Assembly (NCBI GenBank): GCA_020060845.1
Contig: JAGUZK010000043.1
Span: forward strand, 1 to 60,569
Direction: 5' to 3'
Origin: Candidatus Woesebacteria bacterium
Lineage (GTDB): Bacteria; Patescibacteriota; Microgenomatia; UBA8517
Length of the DNA: 60,569 bases
Positions 5,712 to 53,704 of this stretch are shown piece by piece. The translations under genes and the position numbers were made by a program. Position 1 is the stretch's first letter, and each line of letters starts with the position of its first letter. The notes below the pieces were generated by a model that was not told the origin of the DNA, searched no databases, and saw only the letters and a program-made list of their open reading frames with translations.

Positions 5712-5714
5712 TGG

Positions 5715-6818
5715 ATGATTAAGACCGTCAAACTTCAAGATTTTAGGAATTTTAATGAGCTGACTCTAAACTTTTCAAGTGGGGTTACTGTAATATTGGG
5801 GCCCAATGCCTCTGGAAAGACCAATATTCTTGAGGCTTTATACCTTCTTTCAACCGGTAAAAGCTTCAGAGCTCGCTTGGAGGAGGAGATGATAAATTAT
5901 GGCGGGCAAGTAGCGCGCGTCAAAGGTACTGTTGTAGACGAAAAAGGTGGGTCTAACACTGGCCCAGCAATTACTAGTCTGGAAGTAATTCTCACGCGGG
6001 GGAAAATAAAAGTTGGTGATGACCCCGAGAAAATTCAAAATATCCCAAGAAAGACGCTAATTAAAAATGGCGTTTCAAAACGACTTATTGATTTTGCTGG
6101 GAAATTGAAAGTGGTCTTATTTGGGCCGTGGGATCTAGACCTAGTTACCCAGTCACCAAGCCTACGGAGAAAATTTCTTGATACAGTTCTTTCTCAGGTT
6201 GACAGAGAATATAGGAGGGCGTCTCTTTCCTACGAAAAAGGGCTTCGTCAAAGAAATAGGTTGTTGCAAAGGATTCGGGATGAGGGAGTCCCCCGCACGC
6301 AGCTAGCTTTTTGGAACCAGCTTCTTGTCAAAAACGGAAACTACATTTCAGACAAAAGGGGAGAGTTTGTAGATTTTGCAAATAAAAGCCCCGGTTTTTT
6401 GGATCAGGATTTCTCTTTGATTTATGACGCAAGTGCAATTTCTAGTGCCCGCCTTGAGCGTTATAAGGAAGAGGAAGTATCTGCAGCAACAACTCTAGTC
6501 GGACCCCATAGGGATGACATAATATTTGAAATGCGAAGTGGAAAGTCATCAAAAGATGGCAAGATTGATTTGGCCAGATTTGGTAGCCGTGGCGAGCAGA
6601 GGATGGGGGTTCTTTGGCTTAAAATGGCGGAACTGGCGTTTATTGAAAAAGTAACAAATGAGAAACCCACGCTTTTACTTGATGATATTTTCTCCGAGCT
6701 TGATCATGAACACCGGGAGGTTATCTTTGAAGTCTCAAAGAGCCAACAAACAATAATTTCAACAGCAGATCAACATTATTTAGAAAAGTCTATAGAGGTG
6801 GAAAGAGTAGAATTGTAG
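5715..6818 (+). CDS. recF: DNA replication/repair protein RecF
   Basis: LQDFRNF...ILGPNASGKTNILEALYLLSTGKSFRA Walker A context. C-terminal LLLDDIFSELD signature/Walker B. Confidence 0.9.
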   Translation: MIKTVKLQDFRNFNELTLNFSSGVTVILGPNASGKTNILEALYLLSTGKSFRARLEEEMINYGGQVARVKGTVVDEKGGSNTGPAITSLEVILTRGKIKVGDDPEKIQNIPRKTLIKNGVSKRLIDFAGKLKVVLFGPWDLDLVTQSPSLRRKFLDTVLSQVDREYRRASLSYEKGLRQRNRLLQRIRDEGVPRTQLAFWNQLLVKNGNYISDKRGEFVDFANKSPGFLDQDFSLIYDASAISSARLERYKEEEVSAATTLVGPHRDDIIFEMRSGKSSKDGKIDLARFGSRGEQRMGVLWLKMAELAFIEKVTNEKPTLLLDDIFSELDHEHREVIFEVSKSQQTIISTADQHYLEKSIEVERVEL

Positions 6819-7082
6819 GTGTAAAATATTTTCTGTAAGATTAGAAAGAAAACCAGATGAAGGCAATAATGATGGGGTAGTTATTACGATAGGTGCACAT
6901 GGTAGACCCGTGGATCCCGAAAGTGTTGCAGTTGAATTTGCAAGACAAATAGCTTTAGAAACTGGAACACCAGTTATTATAACAGATGTAACTGAAGGGG
7001 ATGGGTTAGATCCAAAAGGAAGGCCTATTGTTGTTAATCCATATCCACCAACCTCAAGAAGTTGAGGAGACTGACGTCTATT

Positions 7083-7409
7083 TTATTCTTCCTTTTTACT
7101 ACTTTTTACAATCTTACTTAGCTGATAGGTAATTAGTACCGCCAGAAAAGTAACAACTAATGCGTAAATTAAAAGCGAGATAATTCCTGAGCCCCCGCCA
7201 AATACTGGTTCGATGTAGTTTTTAATTAGCTCTTTAATGAGTTCATTCCAAGCAAGTGCTGCAACAAGCCCAAACCCACTTGTTACAAGCTTTAATAGTT
7301 TGTCTGCAAATTGTTTCTTGAATTCCTGAGCTTCCTTTTTTAATTTTTCCTCAAGTGTCTTTTGGGTTATCTCAAGGCTTTTGTCTTTTAAGGAAGTATT
7401 GGTAGTCAT
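7083..7409 (-). CDS. Small membrane protein (DUF5654-like)
   Basis: 108 aa with a coiled N-terminus then two hydrophobic helices (GFGLVAALAWNELIKE...). Confidence 0.6.
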   Translation of the reverse strand: MTTNTSLKDKSLEITQKTLEEKLKKEAQEFKKQFADKLLKLVTSGFGLVAALAWNELIKELIKNYIEPVFGGGSGIISLLIYALVVTFLAVLITYQLSKIVKSSKKEE

Positions 7410-7462
7410 CTAGCCTTTATTTTAATATACTTTAAGTATAGGGGGTAATTTTTCAAATTCCA

Positions 7463-8356
7463 ATGAGAGTTTTTGATAAATCTGAATTGAAAAAGCTGTT
7501 TAAGCCCGCTTTTGATAGCTCAGGAGAGGATAATGGGCAAATTACCATAATTGGCGGATCAAAGCTTTTTCATGGAGCGCCCGTCTTGGCATTGAAGGTT
7601 GCCTCAAGGATTGTTGATATGGTTTTTTTTGCCACTCCCGAACCATCGGTTGGCGAAGTAGCTGAAAAGATTAAATCAAAGATATTGTCTTTTATCTGGG
7701 TTCCCTGGGAAGATACTGAGGATTATATTAAAAAATCCGACGCGGTTTTAATTGGACCCGGTTTCATGAGATTTGGAAGCGAAAAGACTCCCGAAGGTCA
7801 GAGGAACCATGAAAATCACATAGAGGGACAGGTTACTAGGCAAATTACTCAAGACCTTCTTGAGAAATTCCCCAATAAGCGTTGGGTGATTGATGCTGGA
7901 AGTCTACAGGTAATGGAGGCAAGTTGGATTCCAGCGGGGGCGATAGTCACTCCAAACAAAAAGGAGTTTGAGATGTTGTTCAAAAACGATATCAAAAACT
8001 TAAATACTATATATTATTTAAGTGATGAGGAGAGAGGAAAAATAGTGGGAGACATGGCAAGAAAATACGGTTGTATCATTGTTCTTAAAGGCCCCAGTAC
8101 TATTGTTTGCAGCCCAAATGAATGTGTGTTGGTCAAAGGAGGAAATCCCGGGATGACAAAGGGAGGGACGGGAGATGTCTTGGCGGGTCTGACTGTTGCG
8201 CTTCTTGCCAAAAATGACCCATTTTTGGCAGCTTGTGCTGCTTCTTACATTGCCAAATTTGCAGCCGATATGCTTTACAAGAAAGTTGGGGTAAATTACA
8301 ATGCGGACGACTTGGCAGATTTTACCTCAAATGTTTTTGGAAAGATTTTAGGGTGA
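7463..8356 (+). CDS. nnrD: ADP-dependent NAD(P)H-hydrate dehydratase (YjeF C-terminal type)
   Basis: KGGTGDVLAGL motif and an overall carbohydrate-kinase-like layout. Confidence 0.8.
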   Translation: MRVFDKSELKKLFKPAFDSSGEDNGQITIIGGSKLFHGAPVLALKVASRIVDMVFFATPEPSVGEVAEKIKSKILSFIWVPWEDTEDYIKKSDAVLIGPGFMRFGSEKTPEGQRNHENHIEGQVTRQITQDLLEKFPNKRWVIDAGSLQVMEASWIPAGAIVTPNKKEFEMLFKNDIKNLNTIYYLSDEERGKIVGDMARKYGCIIVLKGPSTIVCSPNECVLVKGGNPGMTKGGTGDVLAGLTVALLAKNDPFLAACAASYIAKFAADMLYKKVGVNYNADDLADFTSNVFGKILG

Positions 8357-35596: not shown

Positions 35597-37154
<1,558 letters not shown>

Positions 37155-37357
37155 CTAAGGAGTTGATTTCACGGCACTTGTGCTTTATGCACAAGCTGTG
37201 ACACACCCCCTTTTAATGTGAGGGTTTAAGGTTATAAAACTTCACAACCTGCTTCCGGCTATATTTTGGATATTAATGTTGCAGACTTGTAAGTTGTAAG
37301 AAAACTGCAAAATTGCCAGTTGGTGAGGCGGGTTTTTTCTCGACTATATAATCTCTT

Positions 37358-38368
37358 CTAGCTTGTTCTTTCCAAGTTTTTTGTGACGATGACACGACCT
37401 TGGTCGTCAGTTCTAAAGGTTACAATAACGGATGAACTGCCATTAAGCGGTTCACTTAAGAATAGACGAATCTTGCCCTCATTTTCCAAGAATTCATAAT
37501 TGGTATATGTCACTATCATTCCTTCTAAGAACTCAAGGTTCTTAACTTTTTCGTAATCTTCATCATTTTGGCTTTCTTTGGGATAAATAATGTAAATTTT
37601 TTTGATGTCCTTGTCTATTACAGTTATCACAAATATTTCTTTATCGTTTAGAACCGGAAAACTTCTGTGATCTCCTTTTATTTCCTTAACTGTGCTATCA
37701 ATATTTTTTGCCTCGGATTGGTGTAGTTCAATGCCACCTGATTGCCAGCCTACTTCTAGAAGTTTTGATTTTTTGGAAAAGATTTGAATATCGTATAAGT
37801 AATAATCATTTCTAACAGATGTAAGGAGTTCGTTTGTATCAAGCACTAATTTGTAAATGTAGTCATCGTCTTCATACTCATAACTATCAGGATTTTGAGA
37901 AAAATAAAGTTTACGTTTAAGGTCCTTTATGTCATATTGAAGGTGATTCAGGTTGGCTCTTATTTCATAGATATCAGAAGAAAAATTTTTTGAAGTCATT
38001 TTTTCTAAAATGTAATCTTCGATTGAAGGATAAATTAATATCGCAAACAGAAGTAGGGTAGTAATAGCAATAAGTGACATATAGATAAGATTGAGGGTCG
38101 AGAGTATCAGTGTTTTTAATAGTTCAAATTTTGCTAAGGCTGATGATAATTTTTTAATAAAACCAATTTCACGAAAAGATATCCTTATCTTTAATATAGA
38201 CTTAGCTATAAAGTAAATAATGAAATAAAAATAAACGATTGCGTTAATTACGATAAATGCTCCAAAAAAAGGTGGGCTTTTGCTCTCAGTTAAAAGGAAA
38301 ATCAAAACATATGTTGCGGAAGAGAAGAAAAATAAGGCAAAGAAAGGGTACATAAGTAAATATAGCAT
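37358..38368 (-). CDS. Hypothetical membrane protein (about 4 N-terminal TM helices plus a soluble acidic C-terminal domain)
   Basis: 336-aa, very AT-rich ORF at the 16S-proximal edge of the island. No motif recognised. Confidence 0.55.
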   Translation of the reverse strand: MLYLLMYPFFALFFFSSATYVLIFLLTESKSPPFFGAFIVINAIVYFYFIIYFIAKSILKIRISFREIGFIKKLSSALAKFELLKTLILSTLNLIYMSLIAITTLLLFAILIYPSIEDYILEKMTSKNFSSDIYEIRANLNHLQYDIKDLKRKLYFSQNPDSYEYEDDDYIYKLVLDTNELLTSVRNDYYLYDIQIFSKKSKLLEVGWQSGGIELHQSEAKNIDSTVKEIKGDHRSFPVLNDKEIFVITVIDKDIKKIYIIYPKESQNDEDYEKVKNLEFLEGMIVTYTNYEFLENEGKIRLFLSEPLNGSSSVIVTFRTDDQGRVIVTKNLERTS

Positions 38369-38606
38369 AAACTATACCTGAGAGAAAAAAGAGGATAATG
38401 ATTATTTTGAAGCAAGGTCTTACTCAGGCAAAGAAGTATCTAGATCAGTTATCGGTGCGGGTAAAACAGAAGAAAATAAGCAGTGGATTGAGGATTTTTC
38501 TTATTTTGTAATTGTGGCGGAGAAAAGTCCTGTCAGGCAGGTGAAATTGCCTGGCTAACGAGTGATAATCCTCTGTTTTATGGCTAGGGTTTTTTGATGT
38601 TTAAAA

Positions 38607-38697
38607 GCGCGGAGGCTAAAAGGCTGACCCGCTTTCCCGGATCTAACCCCGGGACGGCGGACTGCTTTAGAGGCTTTTTGCCCAGTAGCCCCCGCAC
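38607..38697 (-). ncRNA. Candidate structured RNA (unclassified)
   Basis: On the minus strand, GUGCGGGGG pairs with CCUCCGCGC and GUCCGC with GCGGGU. Both include G-U pairs that become A-C mismatches on the plus strand. The inner hairpin is CCCGG-N8-CCGGG. Confidence 0.3.
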
Positions 38698-39151
38698 TTT
38701 TGGATACCAATCTTATCTCAATTATACCTTAAAATAGAAAAATTTCGACTACCTTATTTGGTTTTGTCCACGAAAGCCATCTTTAGCTAGTTGAGGCAGG
38801 CGAGTGTTTTCCTTTTCGATGGATTTCTTCAAGAGCTTCAATTTTTTTCGACTGGATGTCTTTATTCGCGCACCGCTGTTACTTCTTTTGATATAGGATC
38901 AATTTGTACAAGAAGATCACTTATTAGCTTTGTTGTATGTCTCTCAAGTTTTCCTTCAAGTTTAGCTACTTGTGTATAGGGAACCTCTTGCTCTGACAAT
39001 AATTTACTTATAACTTCACTTTGCTTTGCGACAAGCCGGCTCGAGTCAACAAGAATAGTAAATTGTTATACTTTTTATTAAGCCATTTAAGGATTTTCTT
39101 TGTCAACGATAGTTTTTCAAGATGTGATGCCAAGTTTCCGATTTATGATAG

Positions 39152-39225
39152 CCACAGTTTCGTCCCAGCCAAATAGCGAATATCCAGCGGGACTCATCAG
39201 TCCAGTGATTAAGTGGAGACTGTAG
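39152..39225 (-). ncRNA. Type III hammerhead ribozyme motif (HHR-1)
   Basis: Reverse complement: (CU)ACAGUC / UCCA-CUUAAUCAC-UGGA / CUGAUGA / GUCCC-...-GGGAC / GAAA / CUGU(GG). All core positions are present. Stems I and II are loop-closed and stem III is open. Confidence 0.8.
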
Positions 39226-39586
39226 CATTTAGGTAAAGGTATTACATTGGAGTGCGGAGAAGGAGATTGATTTGCGAAGATATAAAAAATTAATGATGCA
39301 AAATGGTTGCATCTTCGCGCTTCAACACTCTGCAGCTCTCACGCACTCCATGGCTATCCCCAGGCACCTTTTCCGAGCCCGCTTTGGACTAATAGGTATT
39401 TCGCCTAAAGACTTTTATAAGCCTAGATTTTATGATCCATTTTTCACCGAAAGCTTTCGGGGTATCACAACTGCCTGCAAACAGTTTCGTGACAAGGATA
39501 TTTGTTTGAGTACTACCTGCGTTCTTTTTCCTTCACCTCAGGGCCAGGTTAGAGGAATGGGGGAAAAACGCCAGATGTCGCCCGAA

Positions 39587-39745
39587 CTAAATCATTTCCG
39601 GAGACCCCATCGCGCAGAAAGCTGCGAGTGCGATAGTAACTGCAATTGCCAAAAAGACCGCAGCAATTTTTTGCGATTTACCTGCAGTCAAGATGGCCAA
39701 GACTGCAGAAACAAGTGCGATTACCAAAAGCCAATTCGCGTTCAT
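39587..39745 (-). CDS. 52-aa two-TM hydrophobic peptide inside the ribozyme-bounded cassette
   Basis: AAAGGAG, 5 nt, then ATG. Translation MNANWLLVIALVSAVLAILTAGKSQKIAAVFLAIAVTIALAAFCAMGSPEMI. It falls below the 60-aa cutoff of the ORF track. Confidence 0.5.
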   Translation of the reverse strand: MNANWLLVIALVSAVLAILTAGKSQKIAAVFLAIAVTIALAAFCAMGSPEMI

Positions 39746-39894
39746 GTTTTCTCCTTTTTGTTAATGTTATGATGAGTATCTTGGTTAATCATCCAATCCT
39801 TCTAAAAAAGCGAGGATTATCACGTACAATATCATCAGATACAACTTGACTCCCTCAAAGGAATTAAATTCCAACTCGCTATTTTAACGAACTA

Positions 39895-39962
39895 ACAGTT
39901 TCGTCCCAGCCAAATAGCGAATATCCAGCGGGACTCATCAGTTCGGCTATGCCGAAGACTGT
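39895..39962 (-). ncRNA. Type III hammerhead ribozyme motif (HHR-2)
   Basis: Reverse complement: ACAGUC / UUCGGC-AUA-GCCGAA / CUGAUGA / GUCCC-...-GGGAC / GAAA / CUGU. The core is complete and stem I has 6 bp. Confidence 0.88.
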
Positions 39963-40150
39963 GTATGAGGAGCTTGATGAAAGAAAATGAAACGTAAATA
40001 AATAATTGCTAATAATAGAAAAAATTTATTGGTTGGGATTTGCATTCCCTTGCTTCATTTAGATTCAAACAAGCTCCTCTGGGAGGAGGGAATTACGGTT
40101 GGCCCCGTAGGCTTTGCTTTCTTAGCCTACAGGGCCAATGCCGTTTCAAA

Positions 40151-40270
40151 TTACAAACCTAAAGCGCTTTGAATGACCGGAATTAATGGAACCACTACGG
40201 TCATCCAACAGGCCACTGTGGCTGCAGCCAATAAGGCGCAGGCTGCGGCGAACTTAACTACTGGCGGCAT
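40151..40270 (-). CDS. 39-aa hydrophobic peptide
   Basis: GGAGG, 8 nt, then ATG. Translation MPPVVKFAAACALLAAATVACWMTVVVPLIPVIQSALGL. Followed by a 14-bp interrupted hairpin (40101-40140). Confidence 0.45.
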   Translation of the reverse strand: MPPVVKFAAACALLAAATVACWMTVVVPLIPVIQSALGL

Positions 40271-40415
40271 GGTTTTTACCTCCTTCCTTTTCTAGTATGA
40301 AAAACCATGGGTGCAGCTAAGCTTTTTAGCTAAACTCAAAGTTCTTCAATCTAATTTTTTAAATGTGCTAAGTAATCTTTTAGATTTCGACAAATGTCAA
40401 AATCTAAAACTTACT

Positions 40416-40518
40416 GGGGACTAGATAGAGGGTGGAAATTAGATGGCGGGGCGCTTAGCGCTTTGCTTTTCGAACAAGTTGTGCTTGTTCTATCTAATTC
40501 TTCTCTCATCTAGTCCCC
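40416..40518. repeat. 103-bp element with perfect 11-bp terminal inverted repeats (MITE-like or long RNA hairpin)
   Basis: GGGGACTAGAT ... ATCTAGTCCCC. The arms extend imperfectly (AGAG/CTCT), with internal hairpins GAACAAG/CTTGTTC and GCGC-tta-GCGC. Confidence 0.5.
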
Positions 40519-40623
40519 CTTGGACACTCTCCTCTCTGGCTCTAGCCAAATCGCCCATATAGAGCAATAGGCATTAATCCAAATTGATAAATCTCCAGGT
40601 CATTCACCGAAGTGAATGCAAAA

Positions 40624-41640
40624 TTACTTGGTGGCATAGATGAAATTGCCGCCAATATCAGAGCCGAATCCAAGTTTATCTCCAAAGGGAATTAAACTTA
40701 CAAACCAGGCGTAGTTGTATGCAACAAATTGCCCACTGCCTGTGAAGATGGCCACGCCGGAATCGTTGGGGGAAATGGCTACTGCCCCTACTCCCCTAAA
40801 GATATCGTTAAAAGCTTCCACTGCAGATAACCATCGTAGCTGCAGCTTTCCTGAGCGGCAAACAAGGTCTCCACCAGATGGCTTCCATTCAACGCGCTCG
40901 CAATACTCATCTGATGAGTAATAGACCCCGTTGCTGTAAAGCACTGCTAATGTGCCCCCAGGAGTGGTAAAGGCCAGCTTATAGGACTGCGCGTCAAGAG
41001 GGACACTGTGGGGGTAACTACCTTTGTACTCGGTCTTTTCGACTTTGCCAGTGAGGTAATTCCCCTTGTATAGGTATCCGTCTTTTCCTCGGAAGTAAAT
41101 CCAGTCTTCCTGAACTAGAACGAATTCTGGTTCGTATCCTACCAGATGACCGAAGCGGTCGATCCGGTTAAGACCGAAGTCATAGACACGAATCGTCCAT
41201 TCACCGCCGGGCTCTTGAACTTGTGCCGAGAAGGCACAATTGTCCCGCGAAATTGTGGGATTACGGAAAGACGCGGCAGCAGCAAATGTCAGATTTGAGA
41301 CGAAGACAGGCCATCCCACTGGATCAATCTCGTAGTATAATATCTCCCACGAGTGGGATTTTTCGTCCCAAACTTCCTGCAGGTATGGCCAAACAGGGCA
41401 TACTTTCACCCTGCCTTCTTCCGGCTTGACGAAAACGGCGGTTTTCAGTGGCAGGGGCGTCTTCGTCTCGCTCGGCGGCGGGCAGCTCGGGTGCGTGGGA
41501 TTGCGACGACACCCCTCGATGCTCATCGCCGTAGCCGCGCTGGTGTTGCTCTGGGGAACTGAAATTGCCACCATGAGCAGGAAAAAGAACAGGGCGGTGA
41601 TAACCGACAGGATACGAAACAGTTTCTGGTTGCGGTTCAT
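40624..41640 (-). CDS. Secreted hypothetical protein (signal peptide plus Pro-rich linker)
   Basis: AAGGAG, 8 nt, then ATG at 41640 (MNRNQKLFRILSVITALFFFLLMVAISV...). Visibly higher G+C than its surroundings. No family recognised. Confidence 0.6.
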   Translation of the reverse strand: MNRNQKLFRILSVITALFFFLLMVAISVPQSNTSAATAMSIEGCRRNPTHPSCPPPSETKTPLPLKTAVFVKPEEGRVKVCPVWPYLQEVWDEKSHSWEILYYEIDPVGWPVFVSNLTFAAAASFRNPTISRDNCAFSAQVQEPGGEWTIRVYDFGLNRIDRFGHLVGYEPEFVLVQEDWIYFRGKDGYLYKGNYLTGKVEKTEYKGSYPHSVPLDAQSYKLAFTTPGGTLAVLYSNGVYYSSDEYCERVEWKPSGGDLVCRSGKLQLRWLSAVEAFNDIFRGVGAVAISPNDSGVAIFTGSGQFVAYNYAWFVSLIPFGDKLGFGSDIGGNFIYATK

Positions 41641-42605
41641 CTCAAAAAACTCCTTTTGGACTAGATTAAAATGGTTCGACCCAATTTTCCTTGCGAGCCA
41701 TTTGAGCTGTGACACTTGGCGTGTGACTTTCACTTCTTTGCCAATGTCATCAGGGCCTTGTTTTCTACTCAGACATTGAGGATTGCGATCTCGACTAGGT
41801 CGAAGAAAGCCTAACTCATGCTTTTTGAAAGCAGGTGCCTTTGTAAGTACCTCACTAGAGGGTGGGGAAGAAACAAGCTTATGGCTTATTTTCTCCGTAC
41901 CCTCTATGAGGATATTGCCTTCAGTAATTTTTACCCGGATATTTAAAAGAGCGATATTAAGTTTCTAACTAACTAAATTTTGCTGTGAGCTATTCACAAC
42001 TTATTCAGTGTTATTAGAAAACTTAAACTGACCTTAACGGTCAGTTGAAAGAGGGCAGTGTTCATAGAAAATTTTGGATCCACCGCAAACCTCTCTCAGC
42101 TAACCGCTAGTGAAATTTCTTTGAGGCCTTAGAGGGATTATTGCGTTGGTGGGTCCAGACAATTTATTAAATTATCCAGACCCCTTAAACGCAAAATCCA
42201 CCTTTAGAGAGGTGGGTAATTATTTAACTATCAAAAAGACAGTTAATCAAAAAATTTTTTAATTAACCGTTACCAGAATCTTGCCAGCTCTGGTAGGGCT
42301 GTCCTCTAAAGCATCTATTATCCTTAGCAAAATGCTTTGGATGTGTAAATTTTCAATTTTTAATTACCCCAGAATAGAAGCTAGTTCAAAACCTTGAGGT
42401 TTTGAGAGCTTCGCTAGCTTATAGCATCTGAGTTCACTATCTCTGCTCGAATTCTAGGAAATTCTCGCAGGTATTGAAATCAGCTGTAATATTAAATTAT
42501 CCTAGAGTGTAAGCAGTCTAGCATATAGAGTGCTATTTGTCAAGTCTCCGCCTTAGGCGGAGTGGTGGGTTGTGAGAAATGAGTAGTGAGTCGTAGAATA
42601 GATAA

Positions 42606-42965
42606 GTGAAGAAAAAGATACAAAGACTTGAAGATATTGAAGTATATAAAGAATCTCTTGTTTTAGCCAAAGAGGTTTTTGACCTTTGCAAGAATCCTAG
42701 CCTAAAAAAAGAGTATTCGATATGTGAACAAATAAAGCGAGCTTGTGTTTCGGTATCTGCTAATATCGCAGAGGGTTATGGAAGACTAATAAGGAAGGAC
42801 TTTTCGCAGTTTCTTTCGATAGCTTTAGGTTCAGTGAACGAGACAGTGGCTTTGCTTGATATTATTGGGGTCAATTTTAGCAATATCGATATAAGAGCTT
42901 TACGGTCAAGCTATAATATTTTGGGGAAGCGAATATACGCTTACAGAAGGAGGTTGTTGTATTGA
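42606..42965 (+). CDS. Four-helix-bundle protein (23S rRNA intervening-sequence protein / Avd-like family)
   Basis: LEDIEVYKESLVLAKEVF...QIKRACVSVSANIAEGYGR...FLSIALGSVNETVALLDI matches the family signature as I recall it. Confidence 0.8.
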   Translation: MKKKIQRLEDIEVYKESLVLAKEVFDLCKNPSLKKEYSICEQIKRACVSVSANIAEGYGRLIRKDFSQFLSIALGSVNETVALLDIIGVNFSNIDIRALRSSYNILGKRIYAYRRRLLY

Positions 42966-43092
42966 ACGCACAACTCATCACTCACTTCTCACTACGATAG
43001 TCGGTACAATCCGAAGACCTTATACATTTTCACACTATCTTTTCACGAGTTCAGATTGAGGCTGGCTATATAAAGGTACCGCTTTTTGATTA

Positions 43093-44052
43093 TTAATGCG
43101 ATGGTTCACGGTCGGATATCATAAAAGGGTAGAAAGGGTAAAAGTCAACTTCTTGAATAATCGGATATACTGTAAGAAGTCTGTCTATGAATTTATTTTT
43201 ACCTATTTCGCTTTTGGGGGATTTGTGTATTTCTTCTTTTGTTTTACCTCCAGCAATGGCTTCGCGGATAAGATATTCGTGTTCGGAGGGTAGCACGAAA
43301 ACTAATTCTCCTTTTTTAACGATAATTGGAGCGTCTCTTCTTATCTCTCGAGGATCTGAATCTGGTAAAAAATTTTTTGGAAGCTTTTGATACAAAAGAT
43401 CGATTATTCTTTCTATTTCACTTAAAGTTACAAAATCGAGCCTAAATCCTTTATGTTTGGGTAAATTGGCGATAAGTCGGGATAATTGATTTTCTCCACT
43501 ACCATCTGTAAACCAGCCGAGCTTGGGCATTCGTTTATCAAAGTCGATTTCGAATTGTTGAAGATGTCTTAAAATATCTTTTTTCTCCATTCCCCTTGCT
43601 GCCATTGCCACTAGTCCCACGACCCACCCTTGTTCGCTAATGATAGTATCAATTTCGTTTTTTACATCGGGAGGTTTTGCGCATACTACTTGATTAACCC
43701 CGATAACCCAGGATGGTAAAAAAAGTTTTACATCTCTAAATGGTGTTTTGCCGACAACTCTTTTGGTCACAAAAGCCATTTGGTTGGCATATCTTATTAA
43801 AAAGGATTGTTTCTCGGGAGGGCTTTTTAGAGTTTCTGCAACTGCTTTCCAGGGGTCTTTTCTGGGGTTGGGGAAATATAGCCCAACAGTTGTTTGGGTA
43901 AATTCAATCGGAGTTTTCGGTGACATTGTGGCAAGGTATGTAAGCATCTCACGGGTTCCGTACCTTCTTCTGAAAGCATGCCCTACATCTGTGTTTGGAT
44001 CAGGGCCAAGTAATGCAACTGCAGCAATCCTTTTAATAGTACTTGCATTCAA
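43093..44052 (-). CDS. Hypothetical protein, probably co-transcribed with the ATPase at 44151-46400
   Basis: 319-aa ORF, same strand, 98 nt downstream of the ATPase gene. No motif recognised. Confidence 0.55.
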   Translation of the reverse strand: MNASTIKRIAAVALLGPDPNTDVGHAFRRRYGTREMLTYLATMSPKTPIEFTQTTVGLYFPNPRKDPWKAVAETLKSPPEKQSFLIRYANQMAFVTKRVVGKTPFRDVKLFLPSWVIGVNQVVCAKPPDVKNEIDTIISEQGWVVGLVAMAARGMEKKDILRHLQQFEIDFDKRMPKLGWFTDGSGENQLSRLIANLPKHKGFRLDFVTLSEIERIIDLLYQKLPKNFLPDSDPREIRRDAPIIVKKGELVFVLPSEHEYLIREAIAGGKTKEEIHKSPKSEIGKNKFIDRLLTVYPIIQEVDFYPFYPFMISDREPSH

Positions 44053-44150
44053 TTCTTGAGGGGTTAGAACACGAGTTTCGGTTCCGTTTATGATTTCTTC
44101 GTATTGAAAGTTTTCTTTTGAAGAAGTACTACCTTCACTTATTGATAAAA

Positions 44151-46400
44151 TTATTTGTGTTCAAGAATTGTAACCTCATTGGGAGTTCCGGTTTGGTTTT
44201 CCTCAATTTCTGTATTTTCAAGTTCTCGAACTTTTTCGTTTTTCAGTTTTTTTGCATACCTTTCTCTTGAGACTCTGATTACTTTTTCGCGGTTCTGATT
44301 TCGTGACATTGGGAGAGGGAGCGTGGTTGCAACAAACGGTCTTACAATATGGCCATCGATTGTCATTCTTATTGCAATTTGGAAGTTCTGCAGGTTGACA
44401 AGGTCGTTTTGTGAAAAAACCTCTGCGAATTCTTTATGTATTCTTGATGCATCTTCAGCTCCAACTGCAAAAGCAATTAGCGTTCCTGCGTTCCCCAAGA
44501 TAGCCTTGGTAACATGTTCCGGGAGCTGACCCATATATTGATTTGCTAAAGTTAGGGAAAGACCAAATTTTCTTGCTTCGGAGAGTATCTTGATAAATGA
44601 ATCTGTGGCAAAATTCTGAAACTCATCAACATATAGAAAAAAGGGAGTCCTTTGCTCTTTGGAGATATCTACTCTTCTCATTGCAGCAAGTTGGAATTTG
44701 GTAATGAGTGTGGCCCCTAGCAAAGCCGCATTATCTTCACCGAGCCGTCCTTGAGAAAGATTTGCAATAAAGATTTTTTTATTATTGATAACTTCATCAA
44801 GCGAAACTGTTGATTTTGGGTAGCCGATAACCCGCCGTATTATAGGGGATGTAACAAACTGCCCGACCTTATTTTGGATGGGAGCTATTGCTTCCTTTTG
44901 AAGCCTATCTGGCATCTTCTCAAATTCTTCTTTCCAAAAGTGGATTAAAGCTGGATCATTAATCTTTGAATAGACCCTATTTCTGTAGGAGCGGTTGGCT
45001 AAAAGGCTTAAAACATCCGATAGCGTGGTTCCAGGAATTTCAGTCAGAGTTAAGAATGAATTACGGAGTATATATTCCATCCTTGCAGACCAGACATTTG
45101 CCCAGACTTTAGTAAAAATGCTCATCAGTCCCGATGTAACAAGTTCTGCTTCTTCTCGATTTGTAACTTCGAGTGGATTAATGGTAATAGGGAATTCCCT
45201 ATCTGCTGGGTTAAAGTAGATTGTATCATTTATGCGATTTTTGGGTATGTAATCAAGCAGATCCTCGCAAAGATCTCCATGCGGGTCAATTACAGCAACA
45301 CCTCGACCTTTTTTAAAATCGTCTATTGCCATATTGGCTATCATTGTGGATTTACCGGTACCAGTTTTTCCCACTGTCCATATGTGTCGGAGCCGATCGG
45401 CATCTTTTATGCCAAAAATAGCATTGTGGTTTTTAAAGATCGTTTTAGCGAAGAAGTTTATTTGAAGCTTTTGAGACTCATCTAGCCCTTCTGCTATTGG
45501 CAGGTTGTTTGGAGGTTCTGAGAGTATGTCTCCTCCCCAGGCAACTCCCGGAACCTTAATCTTTTCATTTGGAAGGTGCCAGAGGGTTGCTATTTCCTCA
45601 ATGTTTAAGATGTTCCCTCCCAGGACACGGCGATTCAGAGTAAAGCTTTTTTCGCGGTTTTTGTCAAACAAAGGTATTTTAAAAACTTTTATTGAGTTTC
45701 CATCAGGACGATTAAAAACCCCCAAGGCGGATAAAAATTCGGTTTGTGTTGTATTTGAATTACTGATAAGCCGTAAACTTACCCTAAACCCCGGGTAATT
45801 AATTTTTTCAAAAATAATATTTGCATCCGGTCTTCTGGTATATGTACCGTCGTCTCTTCTCGTTCCTCTTTCAGCAAAGTCCCTGGCTCTTGATTGCCAA
45901 ATTTCATCTACTGACTCAAGTGCTATCTGAAAAACAAAGACTCCTCCTCTTTCCATCTTTGTTAGGACAGCAAGCAGGGATGAGAGCGGGTCTATCTCGC
46001 TAAAATCTTTATAAACTGCTAGAGGGTAGTAATTTCCTCTTACCAGAGTTAGGCTGATAATATTTAAGTTCTCATTTTTTAGTGGATCTGAAATTTTTTG
46101 GATTGTAGATGTGGGGTAGTTTGATTGAATTTGGGACTCAATAAAAGGTATTAGTTCTTTGTCTGCACTTATCAAAAAGCTTATCTCTTGACCGATTGAA
46201 GCAATTTCCAGAGCTAGACCCTTTGGTTTTTTCCCGAGTAAGATTTTTTCCCAAAATCCAACGCCGTTGATTTTGGTGAGAGCTGAAAGCATTGTCTTTG
46301 CAGCCTCGGGGGTGGTAGACGAATCGCGAGGGGTTTTTATTGAGAGTGTGATAATTTCTGACATAGCTAGTTTATTATACATAAAAGATAGATTAAACAA
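44151..46400 (-). CDS. FtsK/HerA/VirD4-superfamily P-loop ATPase (type IV coupling-protein-like) with unknown ~300-aa N-terminal domain
   Basis: Walker A VGKTGTGKST, VIDPHGD, Walker B FFLYVDEFQNF, and ARKFGLSLTLANQYMGQL resemble TraD/TraG/VirD4-type NTPases. The likely start is MSEIITL at 46364. Confidence 0.65.
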   Translation of the reverse strand: MFNLSFMYNKLAMSEIITLSIKTPRDSSTTPEAAKTMLSALTKINGVGFWEKILLGKKPKGLALEIASIGQEISFLISADKELIPFIESQIQSNYPTSTIQKISDPLKNENLNIISLTLVRGNYYPLAVYKDFSEIDPLSSLLAVLTKMERGGVFVFQIALESVDEIWQSRARDFAERGTRRDDGTYTRRPDANIIFEKINYPGFRVSLRLISNSNTTQTEFLSALGVFNRPDGNSIKVFKIPLFDKNREKSFTLNRRVLGGNILNIEEIATLWHLPNEKIKVPGVAWGGDILSEPPNNLPIAEGLDESQKLQINFFAKTIFKNHNAIFGIKDADRLRHIWTVGKTGTGKSTMIANMAIDDFKKGRGVAVIDPHGDLCEDLLDYIPKNRINDTIYFNPADREFPITINPLEVTNREEAELVTSGLMSIFTKVWANVWSARMEYILRNSFLTLTEIPGTTLSDVLSLLANRSYRNRVYSKINDPALIHFWKEEFEKMPDRLQKEAIAPIQNKVGQFVTSPIIRRVIGYPKSTVSLDEVINNKKIFIANLSQGRLGEDNAALLGATLITKFQLAAMRRVDISKEQRTPFFLYVDEFQNFATDSFIKILSEARKFGLSLTLANQYMGQLPEHVTKAILGNAGTLIAFAVGAEDASRIHKEFAEVFSQNDLVNLQNFQIAIRMTIDGHIVRPFVATTLPLPMSRNQNREKVIRVSRERYAKKLKNEKVRELENTEIEENQTGTPNEVTILEHK

Positions 46401-46647
46401 GGGAGAAGTAAGTATTGGCGTCCAGAGGGGGGGCGTTGTGTCTGGTGGAAATTGGTTGCCTCTTTTGGGTGTTGGGATGGTTTCTATTTTTACTTTTTGA
46501 TTTTTGATCTATTAGATTTTGTGGCCAATTTGTGATAAATTTATAAAAGCAAGTAACTTGAAAAGTATTTTGAGCTTGATGTTTGTGGTCTAGCGGTAAA
46601 GCATTTCTGACAAGACGAGAGTTTTGCTTAAAATTGTAAGTATTTTT

Positions 46648-46720
46648 GCGCGAGTGGCTCAGTGGTTAGAGCACCTTCCTGATAAGAAGGGGGCCGCAGG
46701 TTCGATTCCTGCCTCGCGCA
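46648..46720 (+). tRNA. tRNA-Ile (anticodon GAU)
   Basis: Acceptor GCGCGAG/CUCGCGC, anticodon arm CCUUC-CUGAUAA-GAAGG, T-arm GCAGG-UUCGAUU-CCUGC. Confidence 0.9.
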
Positions 46721-46820
46721 CCCCCATGTACTGGGATCAGACTGTAGGGATTGTAGTAAAGGTTATTGGAGCTCTCGAAAAGAGGTGTAATTGGATAGGC
46801 AGGGATTAAGACGGTGAGGT

Positions 46821-47583
46821 TTGAAATACTTGCAGACTGTGGCAATTATGAAGCTAAAATTTCCCAAATCGCCAACTACATCTTGGGTTATACGAACAAA
46901 GAATGAGGAAAAATGGCTGGGTGAAGTATTAAAAGCCCTTTTTATGCAGAGCCGGTTGGATTTTGAAGTAGTAATTATGGATTCTGGGTCAACAGATAGG
47001 ACCCTAGAAATTGCAAAAGATTTTCCAATTAGAAAAGTTATCAATCTGCCTGAAAATGAATTCAACTACAGTTATGCGCTTAATCTTGGAATTAAAAAGG
47101 CTTGGGGCAAATATGTAGGAATTATCTCTGGTCATTCACTTCCTGTAAGCCGCACATGGTATCAGGATGCAATGGAAAACTTCTCTGACCCAAAAATGGC
47201 AGCTGTGACAGGACACTATACCTCTCTTCCTGATGGTTCCTTAGACGAAAAACTCGGAGATTTATTTTTTAGTCTGAAGCGCTTAGAGAAAGAGTTTTAC
47301 TGTAAGTGGATGACCAATACCAACGCGATTATTAGAAAAGATTTATGGGAAAAAGTATCCTTTTGATGAAAGGCTAGAAGAATGTGAGGATTATGATTGG
47401 GCATGTGAGATGATTGCTCGAGGTTGGAACATAGTTAAAGACCCAAAATTTAATGTCTATCATTCCCATGGTGGAATTGGTAGACCTACCTATATAGAAA
47501 GACTCCCAACTTGGCAAAGGGTTTGTGCTTTAATTGACAAGAAGAAGAGACCAAGCAGGTCGTATTCAAGATTGTTTGGCTGA
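46821..47583 (+). pseudogene. Family 2 glycosyltransferase interrupted by a frameshift (or sequencing error) near 47345-47366
   Basis: The N-terminal part (VIRTKNEEKWL...VIMDSGSTDRT) stops at 47366. The next frame continues YPFDERLEECEDYDWACEMIARGWNIVKDPKFNVYHSHGG... to TGA at 47581-47583. The shift lies at the GGGAAAAAG run. Confidence 0.7.
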
Positions 47584-47750
47584 GTTTTTTCTTCTGTAGT
47601 TTGAAAAGATCTGCTTGGTCTGACATTAACCTTTTTTACAAGAATGTAGGGGTGTTTGAGTTATAAGGTTAATTTCTTTGCTGCGAAAGAGGTAAAACCA
47701 GGCTAGCGAAAGGAATTTGCAAGGTGAGGAGGCTTGGTAGCATGCCATTT

Positions 47751-49415
47751 CTAATGATTTCCATACGCGTCTGCCATATATTGAGTTTTCTCCGACATTA
47801 TTCTTAAGAGGTCCGTTTTTTCATTCTTGATTATATTTCTTAGCTCAGAAATATTTTTGACCCCCAGATCCGCCAGGGTTCGCGCTGCATAACTTAAGTA
47901 CTCATTTATCCAAAAAGACATCGAGTTTGCCTTCTTTTCAAGGTACATAAAACCAGGTTTCCCTTCAGGGTTATATGTCCTTCCTGAGGCGTCTGACCTT
48001 TTCTGTCTTATATTTTCGTCTTCAGACTCAATTAATTGAGTTACAGGACTTGCAGATCCGGGATAAGGTTGGCACACCTTACCATTTAAGTGTTGGAAAA
48101 ATAAGTCTCCGGTTTCAATTGTCCCGTGTACCATTTTCTGGTTACCAAGGCAGCAGTCTATACCCATTATCAGGGCGGTCCCTATTGATCTGTCGATACC
48201 TCCCTCTACTATTACTGAGGTAGAGTTAAAAACAGGATCGGTTACAACATTATAGACATCTTCGACGGTTGTTATTGCCATTCCGTTTATGGCTGATGTG
48301 CACTGTTGTCCGCCACCATGTCCAAAGACGAGGGCATCCACACGGATCTTGGGAGAAATCAACCTTAATGCTTGATTTTTGTCGGCGATTTGACCTACAA
48401 AAATTTCAATTGTATCTCCAAATTCGGCCCTTAATGCCTGTGCCATGTCTATTACTCTTTTGTCTGATCCGATGGTATAGATTCTAAAAAGCCTGATTCC
48501 AGCTTTTTCATAAAGTTTTTTGGCAACTTTAATCTCCTCCTCAACATCAATTCCTATTGATGCACCAATGTTTCTATTGACTCTTTCTTTTTCTGCAGGG
48601 GGGATCTTAAGTTGATCAATGGTTGACTTTGCCTTGTTAGCAAGTGAAATTCTTCTTTCTATATCAAAAGCGAAAATAGAATTTCTGGGGATAAAGCAGG
48701 GCATATAGGCAATTGCCGCTGTGACAAGCGTATCTCTCCAGCCAGTAACGGGAGGCATTGACCCCAGCCCTATTATTCTCCTTGGATATTTACCGACCTT
48801 GTTGAAAAGACCGCTAGTTAAGATTTCGCGCCTGCTTATTATTCTGTCGGTGCTTCTCTTTTTATATCCTAGCTCGGAAAATGCGGGAGTTCGGGTTGGA
48901 AACGGGTAGCTTTTGCTAAATCCTAGAGAGGCCTCAATAGTTTTGGATCTTTGATTGGATCGAGGGGGAATACTAATAATTTGTGCTTCAAGGTCATGGA
49001 TTATTTTGTATATTGTCTCGTTTTGGTTTTGGTCAAAGAAAACTGCTCGTTGGGCAAGTGCAACCTTTCGCCTTTGAGGTCCCATTTGCAAGATCAAGGG
49101 AATGCTGTTTTTGAATACCAGCCTAGTGCTATCAATGTTAGTTATTATTAACCCCAAGCTTGGTGAGTCATGTTTATAAAAATAGCGAGTATAAAAGGTC
49201 TTTGTATCAGCTATGATATCTGGGTAGTGTTTTAACTTATCTGTGTCATCAAGACATTCAAGATGGTAAGCAAAGTCAAGCCCGTTTTTACTTATTTGAT
49301 CATATCTTATTCTTGATATCTCCTCGGGATATGGTTCGGGAAGAGGGTGGGAGTATCCGATCTTTTTTCCTTTGGGGTCGACAACTCTTGCAAGGGTAAT
49401 ACCTTTTTTGTACAT
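47751..49415 (-). CDS. IMPDH/GMP-reductase-family TIM-barrel protein with a long unrelated N-terminal region
   Basis: The C-terminal half has FGHGGGQQCTS (catalytic Cys loop-like) and VIVEGGIDRSIGTALIMG (phosphate-binding-like). The N-terminal ~250 aa were not recognised. Confidence 0.55.
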   Translation of the reverse strand: MYKKGITLARVVDPKGKKIGYSHPLPEPYPEEISRIRYDQISKNGLDFAYHLECLDDTDKLKHYPDIIADTKTFYTRYFYKHDSPSLGLIITNIDSTRLVFKNSIPLILQMGPQRRKVALAQRAVFFDQNQNETIYKIIHDLEAQIISIPPRSNQRSKTIEASLGFSKSYPFPTRTPAFSELGYKKRSTDRIISRREILTSGLFNKVGKYPRRIIGLGSMPPVTGWRDTLVTAAIAYMPCFIPRNSIFAFDIERRISLANKAKSTIDQLKIPPAEKERVNRNIGASIGIDVEEEIKVAKKLYEKAGIRLFRIYTIGSDKRVIDMAQALRAEFGDTIEIFVGQIADKNQALRLISPKIRVDALVFGHGGGQQCTSAINGMAITTVEDVYNVVTDPVFNSTSVIVEGGIDRSIGTALIMGIDCCLGNQKMVHGTIETGDLFFQHLNGKVCQPYPGSASPVTQLIESEDENIRQKRSDASGRTYNPEGKPGFMYLEKKANSMSFWINEYLSYAARTLADLGVKNISELRNIIKNEKTDLLRIMSEKTQYMADAYGNH

Positions 49416-49450
49416 GATAAAACCGCAAAAATGATATATTATTTCTGGGA

Positions 49451-50047
49451 GTGTTGCAATATGCCCAAAAGGATATAGCTATTGAAATGTCATCAAAAAT
49501 CAATGTTTACACTAGAAATCAGAAAAAAGTTGAGGAGATAAAGAGGCTGCTGCCGGCTGTTGAACTAGTTTCCTGTGATCTTGAAGTCGAAGAGATCCAA
49601 TCTCTAGATCCCGTCGAAGTTGCCGTTGCTAAGGCCAAACAAGCATATGAGAAAAGTCAAAAGCAAGCTGGAATTATTGAAGATGTATCTTTGAATATCA
49701 ATTATCTTAATGGCCTGCCTGGAACTTATATAGATGCCTTTATGAAAACGCTTGGAAATGATGGAATATTAAAAATTCTTAGAGGTGCAAAAGACCGAGG
49801 GGCTGAAGCTTTGATTATTGTCGTCTATACGGATGAGAAAGGTGACATGCATATTTTTGACGGAAGAGTAAAAGGAAGAATATCTGATAAGGTACTTGGG
49901 GAGGGTTTTGGTTGGGATCCTATATTTATTCCCGAAGGAGATGATCAGACTTTTGCCCAGATGACGCCGGAACAGAAGGATAAATTTTCCATGCGAGCTA
50001 TTGCTTTTAGGAAACTGGGGTTGTGGCTGCAGGGTCTTGACGGATAG
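49451..50047 (+). CDS. rdgB: Non-canonical purine NTP pyrophosphatase (RdgB/HAM1 family)
   Basis: GLPGTYIDAF, FGWDPIFIPEG...TFAQM and KDKFSMRAIA motifs. The likely start is ATG 49487. Confidence 0.8.
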   Translation: MLQYAQKDIAIEMSSKINVYTRNQKKVEEIKRLLPAVELVSCDLEVEEIQSLDPVEVAVAKAKQAYEKSQKQAGIIEDVSLNINYLNGLPGTYIDAFMKTLGNDGILKILRGAKDRGAEALIIVVYTDEKGDMHIFDGRVKGRISDKVLGEGFGWDPIFIPEGDDQTFAQMTPEQKDKFSMRAIAFRKLGLWLQGLDG

Positions 50048-50195
50048 GATATTATCTATGTATAATAGGCATTGCCTTTTAATTTTAATGATTTTGAGGC
50101 ACGGTTTCTGCTAATGAGAAAAATCTTGACAAGAGTAAACCAACTAAAGCGGGTTTTTTTGTTGTTGTAGATTATTTCTAGAGAAAGTAGCAGAT

Positions 50196-50218
50196 ACCGG
50201 CCTTGAGCCGGTTTTTTT
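50196..50218 (+). terminator. Rho-independent terminator
   Basis: ACCGGC-cttga-GCCGGT followed by T7. Confidence 0.6.
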
Positions 50219-50244
50219 ATGATGTAGGTTATGATTCGCAACTG

Positions 50245-50317
50245 GGGCCGTTGGCTCAGTTGGTAGAGCGCGTCATTTGCAATGACGAGGTCGCCGGTTC
50301 GATCCCGGCACGGTCCA
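50245..50317 (+). tRNA. tRNA-Ala (anticodon UGC)
   Basis: Acceptor GGGCCGU/ACGGUCC with the G3:U70 identity pair, anticodon arm CGUCA-UUUGCAA-UGACG, T-arm GCCGG-UUCGAUC-CCGGC. Confidence 0.9.
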
Positions 50318-50528
50318 CCCTAGCTGGGCGGATCGAGGTAGGTCTTGACAGTTATTGAATGGTGGTTGGCAACTGGAATAATTATCGTTGCGAGCCACCA
50401 CTCAAGGATTGTTAAGACTAGCTATTTTGATATTGCACCTTGACAACTGAAGAGAAAGAATAATCGACCACAATTTCTGTTATTGTGGTCGTAAGTAGGC
50501 CAATTCCTTGTATTTTTACAAGGTTAAT

Positions 50529-53523
<2,995 letters not shown>

Positions 53524-53582
53524 AAAAGGTTTGTCTTTCTCTTCAGTTTTGAGGGTGTAATTAGGCTCTTTTTTCAAGATTC

Positions 53583-53704
53583 TGTCCTGGTGAAGATATC
53601 GCCATCGAACCACCCTTACCCATTCCGAACAAGGAAGTGAAAGGTGGCAGAGCGGACGATAGTTGCCCGGCAACGGGTTGCGAAAATACGTCATCGCCAG
53701 GACA
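53583..53704 (+). rRNA. rrf: 5S rRNA
   Basis: Terminal helix TGTCCTGG.../...CCAGGACA and internal CCCATTCCGAACAAGGAAGTGAAA. Confidence 0.85.

Follow-up and report, generated by a model that had tools for sequence, protein, structure and literature searches.

Two long-stem type III hammerhead motifs flank a small membrane-peptide reading frame in a Candidatus Woesebacteria genome and may process its mRNA

The stretch of DNA analyzed here (60,569 nt, contig JAGUZK010000043.1 of a Candidatus Woesebacteria bacterium; referred to below as the window) carries two type III hammerhead ribozyme motifs, HHR-2 and HHR-1, which are located on the same (minus) strand, 741 bp apart, and enclose one open reading frame (ORF). 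The upstream motif, HHR-2 (39893–39964), reads ACACAGUC/UUCGGCAUAGCCGAA CUGAUGA GUCCC...GGGAC GAAA CUGUUA from 39964 to 39893, where the slash marks the predicted cleavage position. Its stem I is UUCGGC-AUA-GCCGAA, its stem II comprises 13 bp with a bulged U and the loop UUCGC, and its stem III is ACAG/CUGU plus the U16.1:A15.1 pair, around the core CUGAUGA...GAAA. The downstream motif, HHR-1 (39152–39225), reads CUACAGUC/UCCACUUAAUCACUGGA CUGAUGA, then stem II as in HHR-2, then GAAA CUGUGG, from 39225 to 39152. It has the same core, stem II and stem III, and a stem I of 4 bp only (UCCA-CUUAAUCAC-UGGA) with a 9-nt loop. The invariant core (C3 U4 G5 A6 N7 G8 A9, G12 A13 A14, A15.1:U16.1 and H17) is complete in both copies, and the core-adjacent pairs 1.1–2.1 and 10.1–11.1 are Watson-Crick in both (U:A and G:C), as is the A:U pair A15.1:U16.1. 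The covariance-model alignment and the predicted folds agree on the type III topology, with an open stem III and loop-closed stems I and II.

The two motifs share a 48-nt block with 100% identity, located by a repeat search at 39895–39942 (upstream copy) and 39154–39201 (downstream copy) of the minus strand, which covers the 3′ base of stem I, the core, stem II, GAAA and the 3′ strand of stem III. Across stem I from this block, both copies also carry the hexamer ACAGUC, and outside the repeat of 48 nt plus ACAGTC the flanks are unrelated (0.44–0.48 identity). Chance does not account for the motifs: the window contains two matches to the pattern CTGATGAG..CGAAAC, compared with none in 100 shuffles. 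A sequence-only reading that preceded this analysis had already placed two complete type III hammerheads at these positions on one strand, and sequence, core and covariance model agree with it; the identical 48-nt stretch that it described was located in both copies. Its assignment of C17 to the complements of 39957 and 39218 was likewise borne out by the sequence, as was its product length of 739 nt. From the position of the GUC triplet in each motif, cleavage after C17 is predicted between 39956 and 39957 in HHR-2 and between 39217 and 39218 in HHR-1.

In scans with the Rfam covariance models, RF00008 (Hammerhead_3) was the top match at both sites, with 39.5 bits for HHR-1 and 38.4 bits for HHR-2 (E = 1.1e-6 and 2.3e-6 for 1.5 kb searched; 7e-6 and 1.4e-5 for 9.5 kb). 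The matches span the whole model and were obtained on the minus strand only, and no other ribozyme class was found in the surrounding island at E ≤ 1. Both sites are thus genuine type III hammerheads by sequence and covariance model, with predicted self-cleavage. The gathering score of RF00008 is 48.5 bits; since neither site reaches it, a default Rfam scan at curated thresholds reports no hammerhead at the locus, and the E-value mode is needed for detection. The proposal that this model would recognize both sites on the minus strand therefore holds for the ranking and the E-values of about 1e-6 and fails at the curated threshold. The shortfall arises because the motifs have 23 nt in loop 2, where RF00008 has 7. 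Folding revealed that this "loop 2" is really the 13-bp stem II with its one bulged U and 5-nt loop.

Cleavage at both sites would release an RNA of 739 nt (39218–39956, minus strand; GC content 43%), consisting of a 211-nt 5′ untranslated region (UTR), a 159-nt ORF and a 369-nt 3′ UTR, where the 5′ UTR holds the body of HHR-2 and then 149 nt more of leader. The predicted fold is branched, not rod-like, with a moderate excess of stability (z = -3.9). The ORF (39587–39745, minus strand; MNANWLLVIALVSAVLAILTAGKSQKIAAVFLAIAVTIALAAFCAMGSPEMI) was taken from the ORF list and, according to its hydropathy, encodes a 52-aa peptide with two hydrophobic helices joined by KSQK (grand average of hydropathy, GRAVY, 1.59); a Shine-Dalgarno (SD) sequence, AAGGAGA, is located 6 nt ahead of its ATG. 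A consensus scan identified a hairpin (GAUGCAACCAUUUUGCAUC) followed by a U-rich run at 39295–39313 of the minus strand, ~70 nt upstream of HHR-1, with a predicted terminator role. The gene that precedes the cassette on this strand is a 39-aa hydrophobic ORF (40151–40270) with a strong ribosome-binding site (RBS; GGAAGGAGG), present in the ORF list and also called in independent contigs. It is followed by a 15-bp hairpin (40099–40138, minus strand), which probably ends the preceding transcription unit.

The 52-aa peptide belongs to no Pfam or PHROG family, and a word-indexed search of 5.8 billion clusters yielded no homologue. An exhaustive search of 1.84 billion representatives gave, as the sole other match, a weak, hydrophobic one (31% identity, E 1.1e-6). 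A role of the peptide in a type IV secretion system or as a pilin was considered and found unsupported: the coupling protein, encoded 4 kb away, is conserved and chromosomal, and the peptide lacks relatives.

We favour, with a rough probability of 0.55, the reading that the motifs are working, recently duplicated, cis-cleaving type III hammerheads that process minus-strand transcripts into a discrete mRNA for the peptide. From the observed motifs, their conservation, the gene layout and the strand we infer cleavage in vivo, the transcript boundaries and an effect on expression, as follows. Each ribozyme would cut its own transcript during synthesis. The HHR-2 cut would remove all upstream RNA, so that the downstream RNA would start with a 5′-OH followed by folded ribozyme hairpins, and HHR-1 would cut any RNA reading through the terminator-like hairpin. 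The product would be a single-gene mRNA for the 52-aa membrane peptide, of 739 nt if HHR-1 sets the 3′ end or of ~650–670 nt if the terminator does, and its ends, stability and translation would become independent of the neighbouring genes. Such a role corresponds to the mRNA processing or "insulator" function proposed for clustered bacterial hammerheads and exploited in RiboJ.

Several features favour processing in cis. Core and core-adjacent pairs are intact in both copies, RF00008 is the best match and the stems are conserved among the relatives described below, some of which likewise have a hammerhead just ahead of a same-strand gene or a same-strand pair around genes. The ribozymes are sense to all genes of the variable island described below, and they are placed after a gene that is probably terminated and ahead of an ORF whose RBS is good. 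Their stem III is short (4–6 bp), which should favour release of the 5′ product over re-ligation. In addition, what is known of bacterial RNA decay suggests that a structured 5′ end without a monophosphate should resist 5′-end-dependent nucleases, and this, together with the RiboJ precedent, also points to cis processing.

A number of observations weigh against this interpretation. Both motifs score below the curated Rfam threshold (39.5 and 38.4 against 48.5 bits), and the 4-bp stem I of HHR-1 is absent from the minimum-energy fold, in which stems II and III form (in HHR-2, stems I and II are kept). Contact between loops 1 and 2 speeds natural hammerheads; here the 13-bp stem II, next to a stem I of 4–6 bp, means that the two loops are not level, and with loop 2 set far from loop 1 the usual contact is not evident. 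The sixth position of stem II is bulged or occupied by a G:U pair in most members of the subfamily described below, and no contact was demonstrable. No convincing sigma-70-type promoter was detected upstream of HHR-2 by the consensus scan. As an orphan, the 52-aa ORF is a putative coding sequence. Cleavage leaves the predicted exposure of the RBS unchanged, with equal base-pair probabilities in precursor and product; a translational switch is thus not visible, and the idea that cleavage unmasks the RBS was rejected. Finally, every contig that carries the locus comes from a DNA metagenome.

To place the motifs among their relatives, hammerhead cores with a long stem II were scanned for in genomes, metagenomes and viral contigs. 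Most matches were type I or II, and the set built like the hammerheads of the window consists of loci L003 (two copies, on a contig titled Patescibacteria group bacterium), L009 (identical to L050), L011, L042 and L054. All members of this subfamily fold as three-way junctions with a long stem II. RF00008 gave 36–38 bits for the six relatives that it scored, in scans that missed L054 and the upstream copy of L003. The subfamily was not seen in IMG/VR, where the pattern matches have a closed stem III (types I and II). Compensatory changes were counted in eight sequences, representing seven loci, that had been cut down manually to their stems along the structure, a procedure that favours pairing: 98.2% of the cells in this alignment are paired and 9 of the 14 pairs changed on both sides. 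None of 500 shuffles reached this degree of pairing, and controls with slid partners gave 27–46%. Across the relatives, which come from six other contigs, compensatory changes affect all three stems, and those in stems I and III can be recognized even without the alignment. They indicate that the hammerhead structure is under selection, and long-stem-II type III hammerheads are, on this sequence evidence, a real, evolving ribozyme subfamily. The earlier suggestion that the stem I hairpins of HHR-1 and HHR-2, unrelated in sequence and both paired, reflect selection on structure is supported.

These data also bear on the alternative that the motifs are decaying or selfish duplicates without a host role, brought in with horizontally acquired DNA and duplicated locally, in which case it would make no difference to the cell whether they cleave. 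The compositional mosaic of the island and its orphan genes are consistent with such an origin, as is the finding that close relatives with the same flanks lack a hammerhead; the 48 identical nt suggest a recent duplication or conversion, and one partner in L011 is degenerate, with a disrupted core. Every core nucleotide is nevertheless kept in both copies, stem I, the sole diverged segment, was fully replaced and still pairs in both, which is hard to achieve without selection, and compensatory changes occur across the loci of the subfamily. We consider a functionless origin clearly unlikely.

Two of the relatives, L003 and L011, are paired like the motifs of the window. In L003, two same-strand hammerheads lie 2.8 kb apart, with a 540-aa membrane protein and small membrane ORFs between them. 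In L011, a hammerhead ~22 nt ahead of a gene of 277–288 aa (depending on the start codon; Tat-like signal) and a second unit directly after its stop codon enclose the gene on the same strand, with a spacing of about 0.95 kb. In this second unit (~4645–4750) the core is disrupted by ~30 nt inserted at N7; the 5′ flank, stem III, CUGA, GAAA and a stem I that still pairs are retained. RF00008 gives no match to the unit, which represents a dead copy or a core variant of an unusual kind. The distance from the hammerhead to the gene on the same strand is ~245 nt in L003, compared with the ~22 nt of L011, and the L042 hammerhead overlaps the start of a called ORF. In all three paired loci (window, L003 and L011) the stem III strands of the partners are identical, and stem I of the partners is no more alike than the flanks (0.41–0.50 identity). 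Stem II identity between partners is 100% in the window and 83% in L003, and the two are unrelated in L011.

The sharing of stem III raises the possibility of a circular product. After double cleavage, the ends of the excised RNA could be joined by the reverse reaction of the ribozyme or by an RtcB-type ligase: the 3′ end (...ACAGUC>p) would pair with the CUGU strand of HHR-2 and rebuild a hammerhead across the junction, giving a covalently closed RNA of 739 nt, with the peptide ORF either expressed from it or simply carried along. The identical stem III strands do make the ends of the excised RNA complementary, and the retention of stem III and not of stem I in each pair is in line with this. 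The ends predicted from the hammerhead reaction (5′-OH and 2′,3′-cyclic phosphate) suit ligation, and the ORF takes up just 21% of an RNA whose remainder is moderately structured (z = -3.9). Against this stand a rebuilt stem III of just 4 bp plus A:U, a branched fold unlike the compact or rod-like known ribozyme circles, and the terminator-like hairpin ahead of HHR-1; matched stem III strands are also a trivial outcome of duplication. Perreault et al. sought spliced or circular products of clustered bacterial hammerheads and found none (PMC3088659). Circularization is, in our view, unlikely, and we retain cis processing of the mRNA as the preferred explanation.

Searches with the peptide and with the flanking proteins led to further copies of the locus in DNA metagenomes of the deep subsurface, among them fracture fluids at SURF/DeMMO in South Dakota (IMG 3300007351; PMC6121073) and at BE326 in South Africa (SRR7867194; PMC6256629). 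All of these contigs are colinear with the window at 99.9–100% identity and hold a single copy of the cassette at a fixed place, and they show no sign of mobility or of a tandem multimer. The same Candidate Phyla Radiation (CPR) sequence was thus recovered on two continents, with 99.9–100% identity over kilobases between L062 (SRR7867194, South Africa) and L058 and L060 (IMG 3300007351, South Dakota), which could reflect either a cosmopolitan lineage or cross-contamination between sequencing projects. The Logan contigs break in the 48-nt repeat, a behaviour to be expected at k = 31. Contig ends were also considered as possible RNA ends, as two Joint Genome Institute (JGI) contigs stop 3 nt beyond the predicted HHR-1 cut and an Illumina adapter opens one contig; the sequenced material being DNA, these ends are assembly or library artefacts. 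In the case of L060 (JGI Ga0104751_1124737), positions 1–68 hold a poly-T run and a complete Illumina TruSeq P5 adapter, fused at window position 40138 to the base of the 15-bp hairpin, which is contamination in a low-biomass library.

The fixed position of the cassette bears on the idea that it is mobile, i.e. that the unit from cleavage site to cleavage site inserts at a resident hammerhead via an RNA or cDNA circle, in the manner of a retrozyme or an integron. The pairs of the window, L003 and L011 are indeed mosaic, with a shared 5′ flank and stem III and an unrelated stem I; boundary repeats in L011 recur ~0.8–0.95 kb apart, and the cassettes of the window and of L011 are both found in variable DNA that follows a 16S gene at a distance of a few kb. 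There is, however, one copy at the same place in all contigs, and the cassette sequence had no match in phage or plasmid collections or elsewhere in the genomes and metagenomes scanned; neither it nor the peptide was found anywhere else. No phage, integrase, recombinase or reverse transcriptase family occurs near the cassette among the ORFs scanned, and no target-site duplication, long terminal repeat (LTR) or polypurine tract was detected, which makes mobility of this kind very improbable. A broader proposal, that paired hammerheads with a matched stem III and a swapped stem I mark a class of CPR gene cassettes excised as protein-coding RNA circles and possibly exchanged between hammerhead "attachment" sites near rRNA genes, seems to us improbable.

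Similar considerations apply to the comparison with retrozymes and viroid-like RNAs that the sequence-only reading had suggested. Plant LTR retrozymes have LTRs of ~350 bp, 4-bp target duplications, a tRNA-Met primer site and a polypurine tract, and they are non-coding and present in many copies (PMC4918200; reviewed in PMC7761336). The locus resembles them in having two direct type III hammerheads ~0.7 kb apart, whose double cleavage would give an RNA in the range of 600–1000 nt with ligatable ends. It differs in its 48-nt repeat, the lack of a target duplication and of a polypurine tract by HHR-1, its ORF with an RBS and its single copy. The sole purine runs of at least 9 nt in the cassette are the RBS (position 198) and a run at position 423, neither of which adjoins HHR-1, and a non-exhaustive search after the 5′ repeat found no retrozyme primer-binding site. 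Viroid-like RNAs and Obelisks are RNAs of ~1 kb bounded or processed by type III hammerheads, some with small ORFs; they are RNA-only replicons with rod-like folds, often with ribozymes in both polarities. The unit in the window, in contrast, is chromosomal DNA with a branched fold and ribozymes on one strand. The retrozyme or viroid-like framing is unsupported: LTR-size repeats, target-site duplication, polypurine tract and rod-like fold are all lacking, the ribozymes are confined to one strand and the DNA contigs are colinear.

The nature of the peptide suggests another explanation, namely that it is a type I toxin and that the hammerheads replace RNase activation of the toxin transcript. 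The peptide is small and very hydrophobic (GRAVY 1.59), its mRNA would have long UTRs in which UCUCCUU (3′ UTR), along with GUCUCC at the end of the ORF, is able to pair with the SD sequence, and it is encoded in a variable island. The hammerheads of L009, L011 and L042 lie beside toxin-antitoxin-like small gene pairs, read by eye from the translations. Most type I toxins, however, have one helix, compared with the two of this peptide, and there is no homologue to back toxicity. Moreover, the cassette yielded neither an antisense RNA nor a promoter on the plus strand, and the predicted accessibility of the SD sequence is unchanged by cleavage. A ribozyme-controlled toxin thus appears quite improbable, and mRNA processing in cis remains the reading that we prefer.

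The closest precedent for this preferred reading is provided by the clustered bacterial hammerheads of Perreault et al. (2011), which flank single genes or short gene blocks and for which mRNA processing, splicing and circles were discussed (PMC3088659). The authors suggested processing into gene-length mRNAs and observed cleavage of polycistronic RNAs in vitro, and a triple hammerhead of A. tumefaciens flanking ardA and another gene was cleaved in vivo in E. coli (PMC3088659). The locus shares with those clusters the close spacing of same-strand hammerheads around one gene or a few genes, whose identity varies. Unlike those clusters, which occur in prophage or mobile DNA, the present pair has no integrase or phage gene nearby among the ORFs scanned, and it is found in a CPR host, in a variable island of a split rRNA operon, with a 13-bp stem II and Rfam scores below the threshold. 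RF00008 members from viroids, satellites and plants share the core, the open-stem-III topology and the GUC triplet, in keeping with RF00008 being the best covariance-model match; they differ from the motifs of the window in that loop 2 is here replaced by a long helix, the contact between loops 1 and 2 typical of the family is not apparent and the motif is encoded by the DNA of a bacterium. RiboJ, a satellite-RNA hammerhead with an added hairpin that raises the expression of downstream genes, is comparable as a type III hammerhead in a 5′ leader that cuts off upstream RNA, leaves a structured 5′-OH mRNA end and alters or standardizes expression (PMC6206723). It is engineered and single, in contrast to the natural pair of the window, whose effect on expression is putative.

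Hammerheads as a class, their presence in bacteria and their placement around genes are therefore already known, and the earlier claim that no ribozyme-bounded unit of this kind had been described was too strong, given the gene-flanking bacterial hammerheads reported in 2011 (PMC3088659). What is new is (i) the host group, no report linking hammerheads with Patescibacteria or CPR having been found in the literature searched, (ii) the long-stem-II type III subfamily, missed by standard annotation, and (iii) the finding that partners share stem III and not stem I. The role of bacterial hammerheads is unsettled fifteen years after their detection in hundreds of genomes, and the locus in the window offers a compact example with two ribozymes, one tiny ORF and clear boundaries. 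Scored members of this CPR/Patescibacteria subfamily reach 36–39 bits, compared with the cut-off of 48.5, and so escape standard Rfam annotation. The shared stem III and unshared stem I provide a concrete handle on whether such pairs only cut RNA or also join it; if they only process mRNA, the extension of known biology would be modest.

The cassette is situated in a lineage-specific variable island between the 16S gene and a conserved IVP gene (37155–42605). The island contains the cassette with its 52-aa ORF and orphan genes of 336, 39 and 369 aa; no homologue of the 369-aa protein was found. Its GC content varies from 31% (336-aa gene) through 43% (cassette) to 51% (39- and 369-aa genes, 40151–41733), against 41% overall, a mosaic which suggests that DNA of several origins was put together in the island. 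A candidate small RNA of ~90 nt, very stable and of hairpin type (38606–38695, minus strand; GUGCGGGGGCUA...UAGCCUCCGCGC followed by a U-run), lies between HHR-1 and the 336-aa gene and matches no Rfam family. The 123-nt stretch concerned folds at -56 kcal/mol (z = -5.4), and a promoter-like TCGAAA-16-TATAAT sequence is located just upstream of the candidate, from 38748 to 38721.

The island itself belongs to a split rRNA operon (35597–53702), in which the 16S and 23S genes are 13.4 kb apart and tRNA-Ile and tRNA-Ala are still in order. The genes between 16S and 23S include those for a type IV coupling protein (DUF8128 and TrwB), a 23S-IVS four-helix-bundle protein, a glycosyltransferase, an IMPDH-like protein and Ham1; the coupling protein gene is antisense to the rRNA and the 23S-IVS-protein gene is sense to it. 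The coupling protein is 63–70% identical to proteins named Woesebacteria or Patescibacteria, and the gene order 16S, variable genes, IVP, X, coupling protein, tRNA, 23S, 5S is kept in related contigs, which supports the CPR-type host proposed from the sequence alone. The split layout is conserved in the Woesebacteria-like contigs L066, L067 and L068, and the stretch adjoining the 16S gene is hypervariable: L066 and L067, otherwise near-identical, differ in it. The clade has thus had its split operon for a long time, and only the stretch from 16S to IVP varies. Relatives with the same synteny of rRNA and coupling protein genes carry other genes in the variable stretch and no hammerhead there. 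The cassette does lie between 16S and 23S, as was pointed out at the outset, but this interval is no spacer: it is a 13.4-kb, gene-filled and clade-conserved region, and the location has no special meaning. Both near the island and in the rest of the window, the ORFs scanned proved to be common chromosomal genes (S1, RadA, SpoU, thioredoxin reductase and a P-type ATPase).

Some further features of the related loci were recorded. Most subfamily members have a pyrimidine-rich (CU/CT) tract ahead of them, as seen in the 44 nt located 7–50 nt upstream of the cleavage site in the window, L003, L009, L011 and L042. The pyrimidine content of these tracts is 0.66–0.82, with seven of nine in the top 10% of sequence windows on their own strand, and several hold CUCC-type anti-Shine-Dalgarno strings. 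Stem II was also considered as an integron attC-like site: GTTAGAT in L009, L011 and L042 fits GTTRRRY, but the order of the half-sites is wrong and the copy in the window lacks the motif.

At its start, the L011 contig has the 3′ end of a 16S gene interrupted by a group I intron, in which a LAGLIDADG-like ORF was read from the translation; this is a CPR-like feature. Its region 3400–7594 is an array of units of ~0.8–0.95 kb with repeated boundaries, which include hammerhead-derived ends (…CGAAACGAACCCTCCCAATCTTAGC…) and an extended -10 promoter-like sequence, TGTATAAT. Two similar genes, of 187 and 189 aa, are located on the opposite strand of this array, and toxin-antitoxin-like small gene pairs were noted nearby by eye. 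Finally, the scans yielded two identical long-stem type I hammerheads (L001, 7714–7756, and L002, 4888–4930; Nitrospirales contig CBDBCZ010000018.1), which are located 48 kb apart inside a repeated element and are unrelated to the subfamily found in the window.

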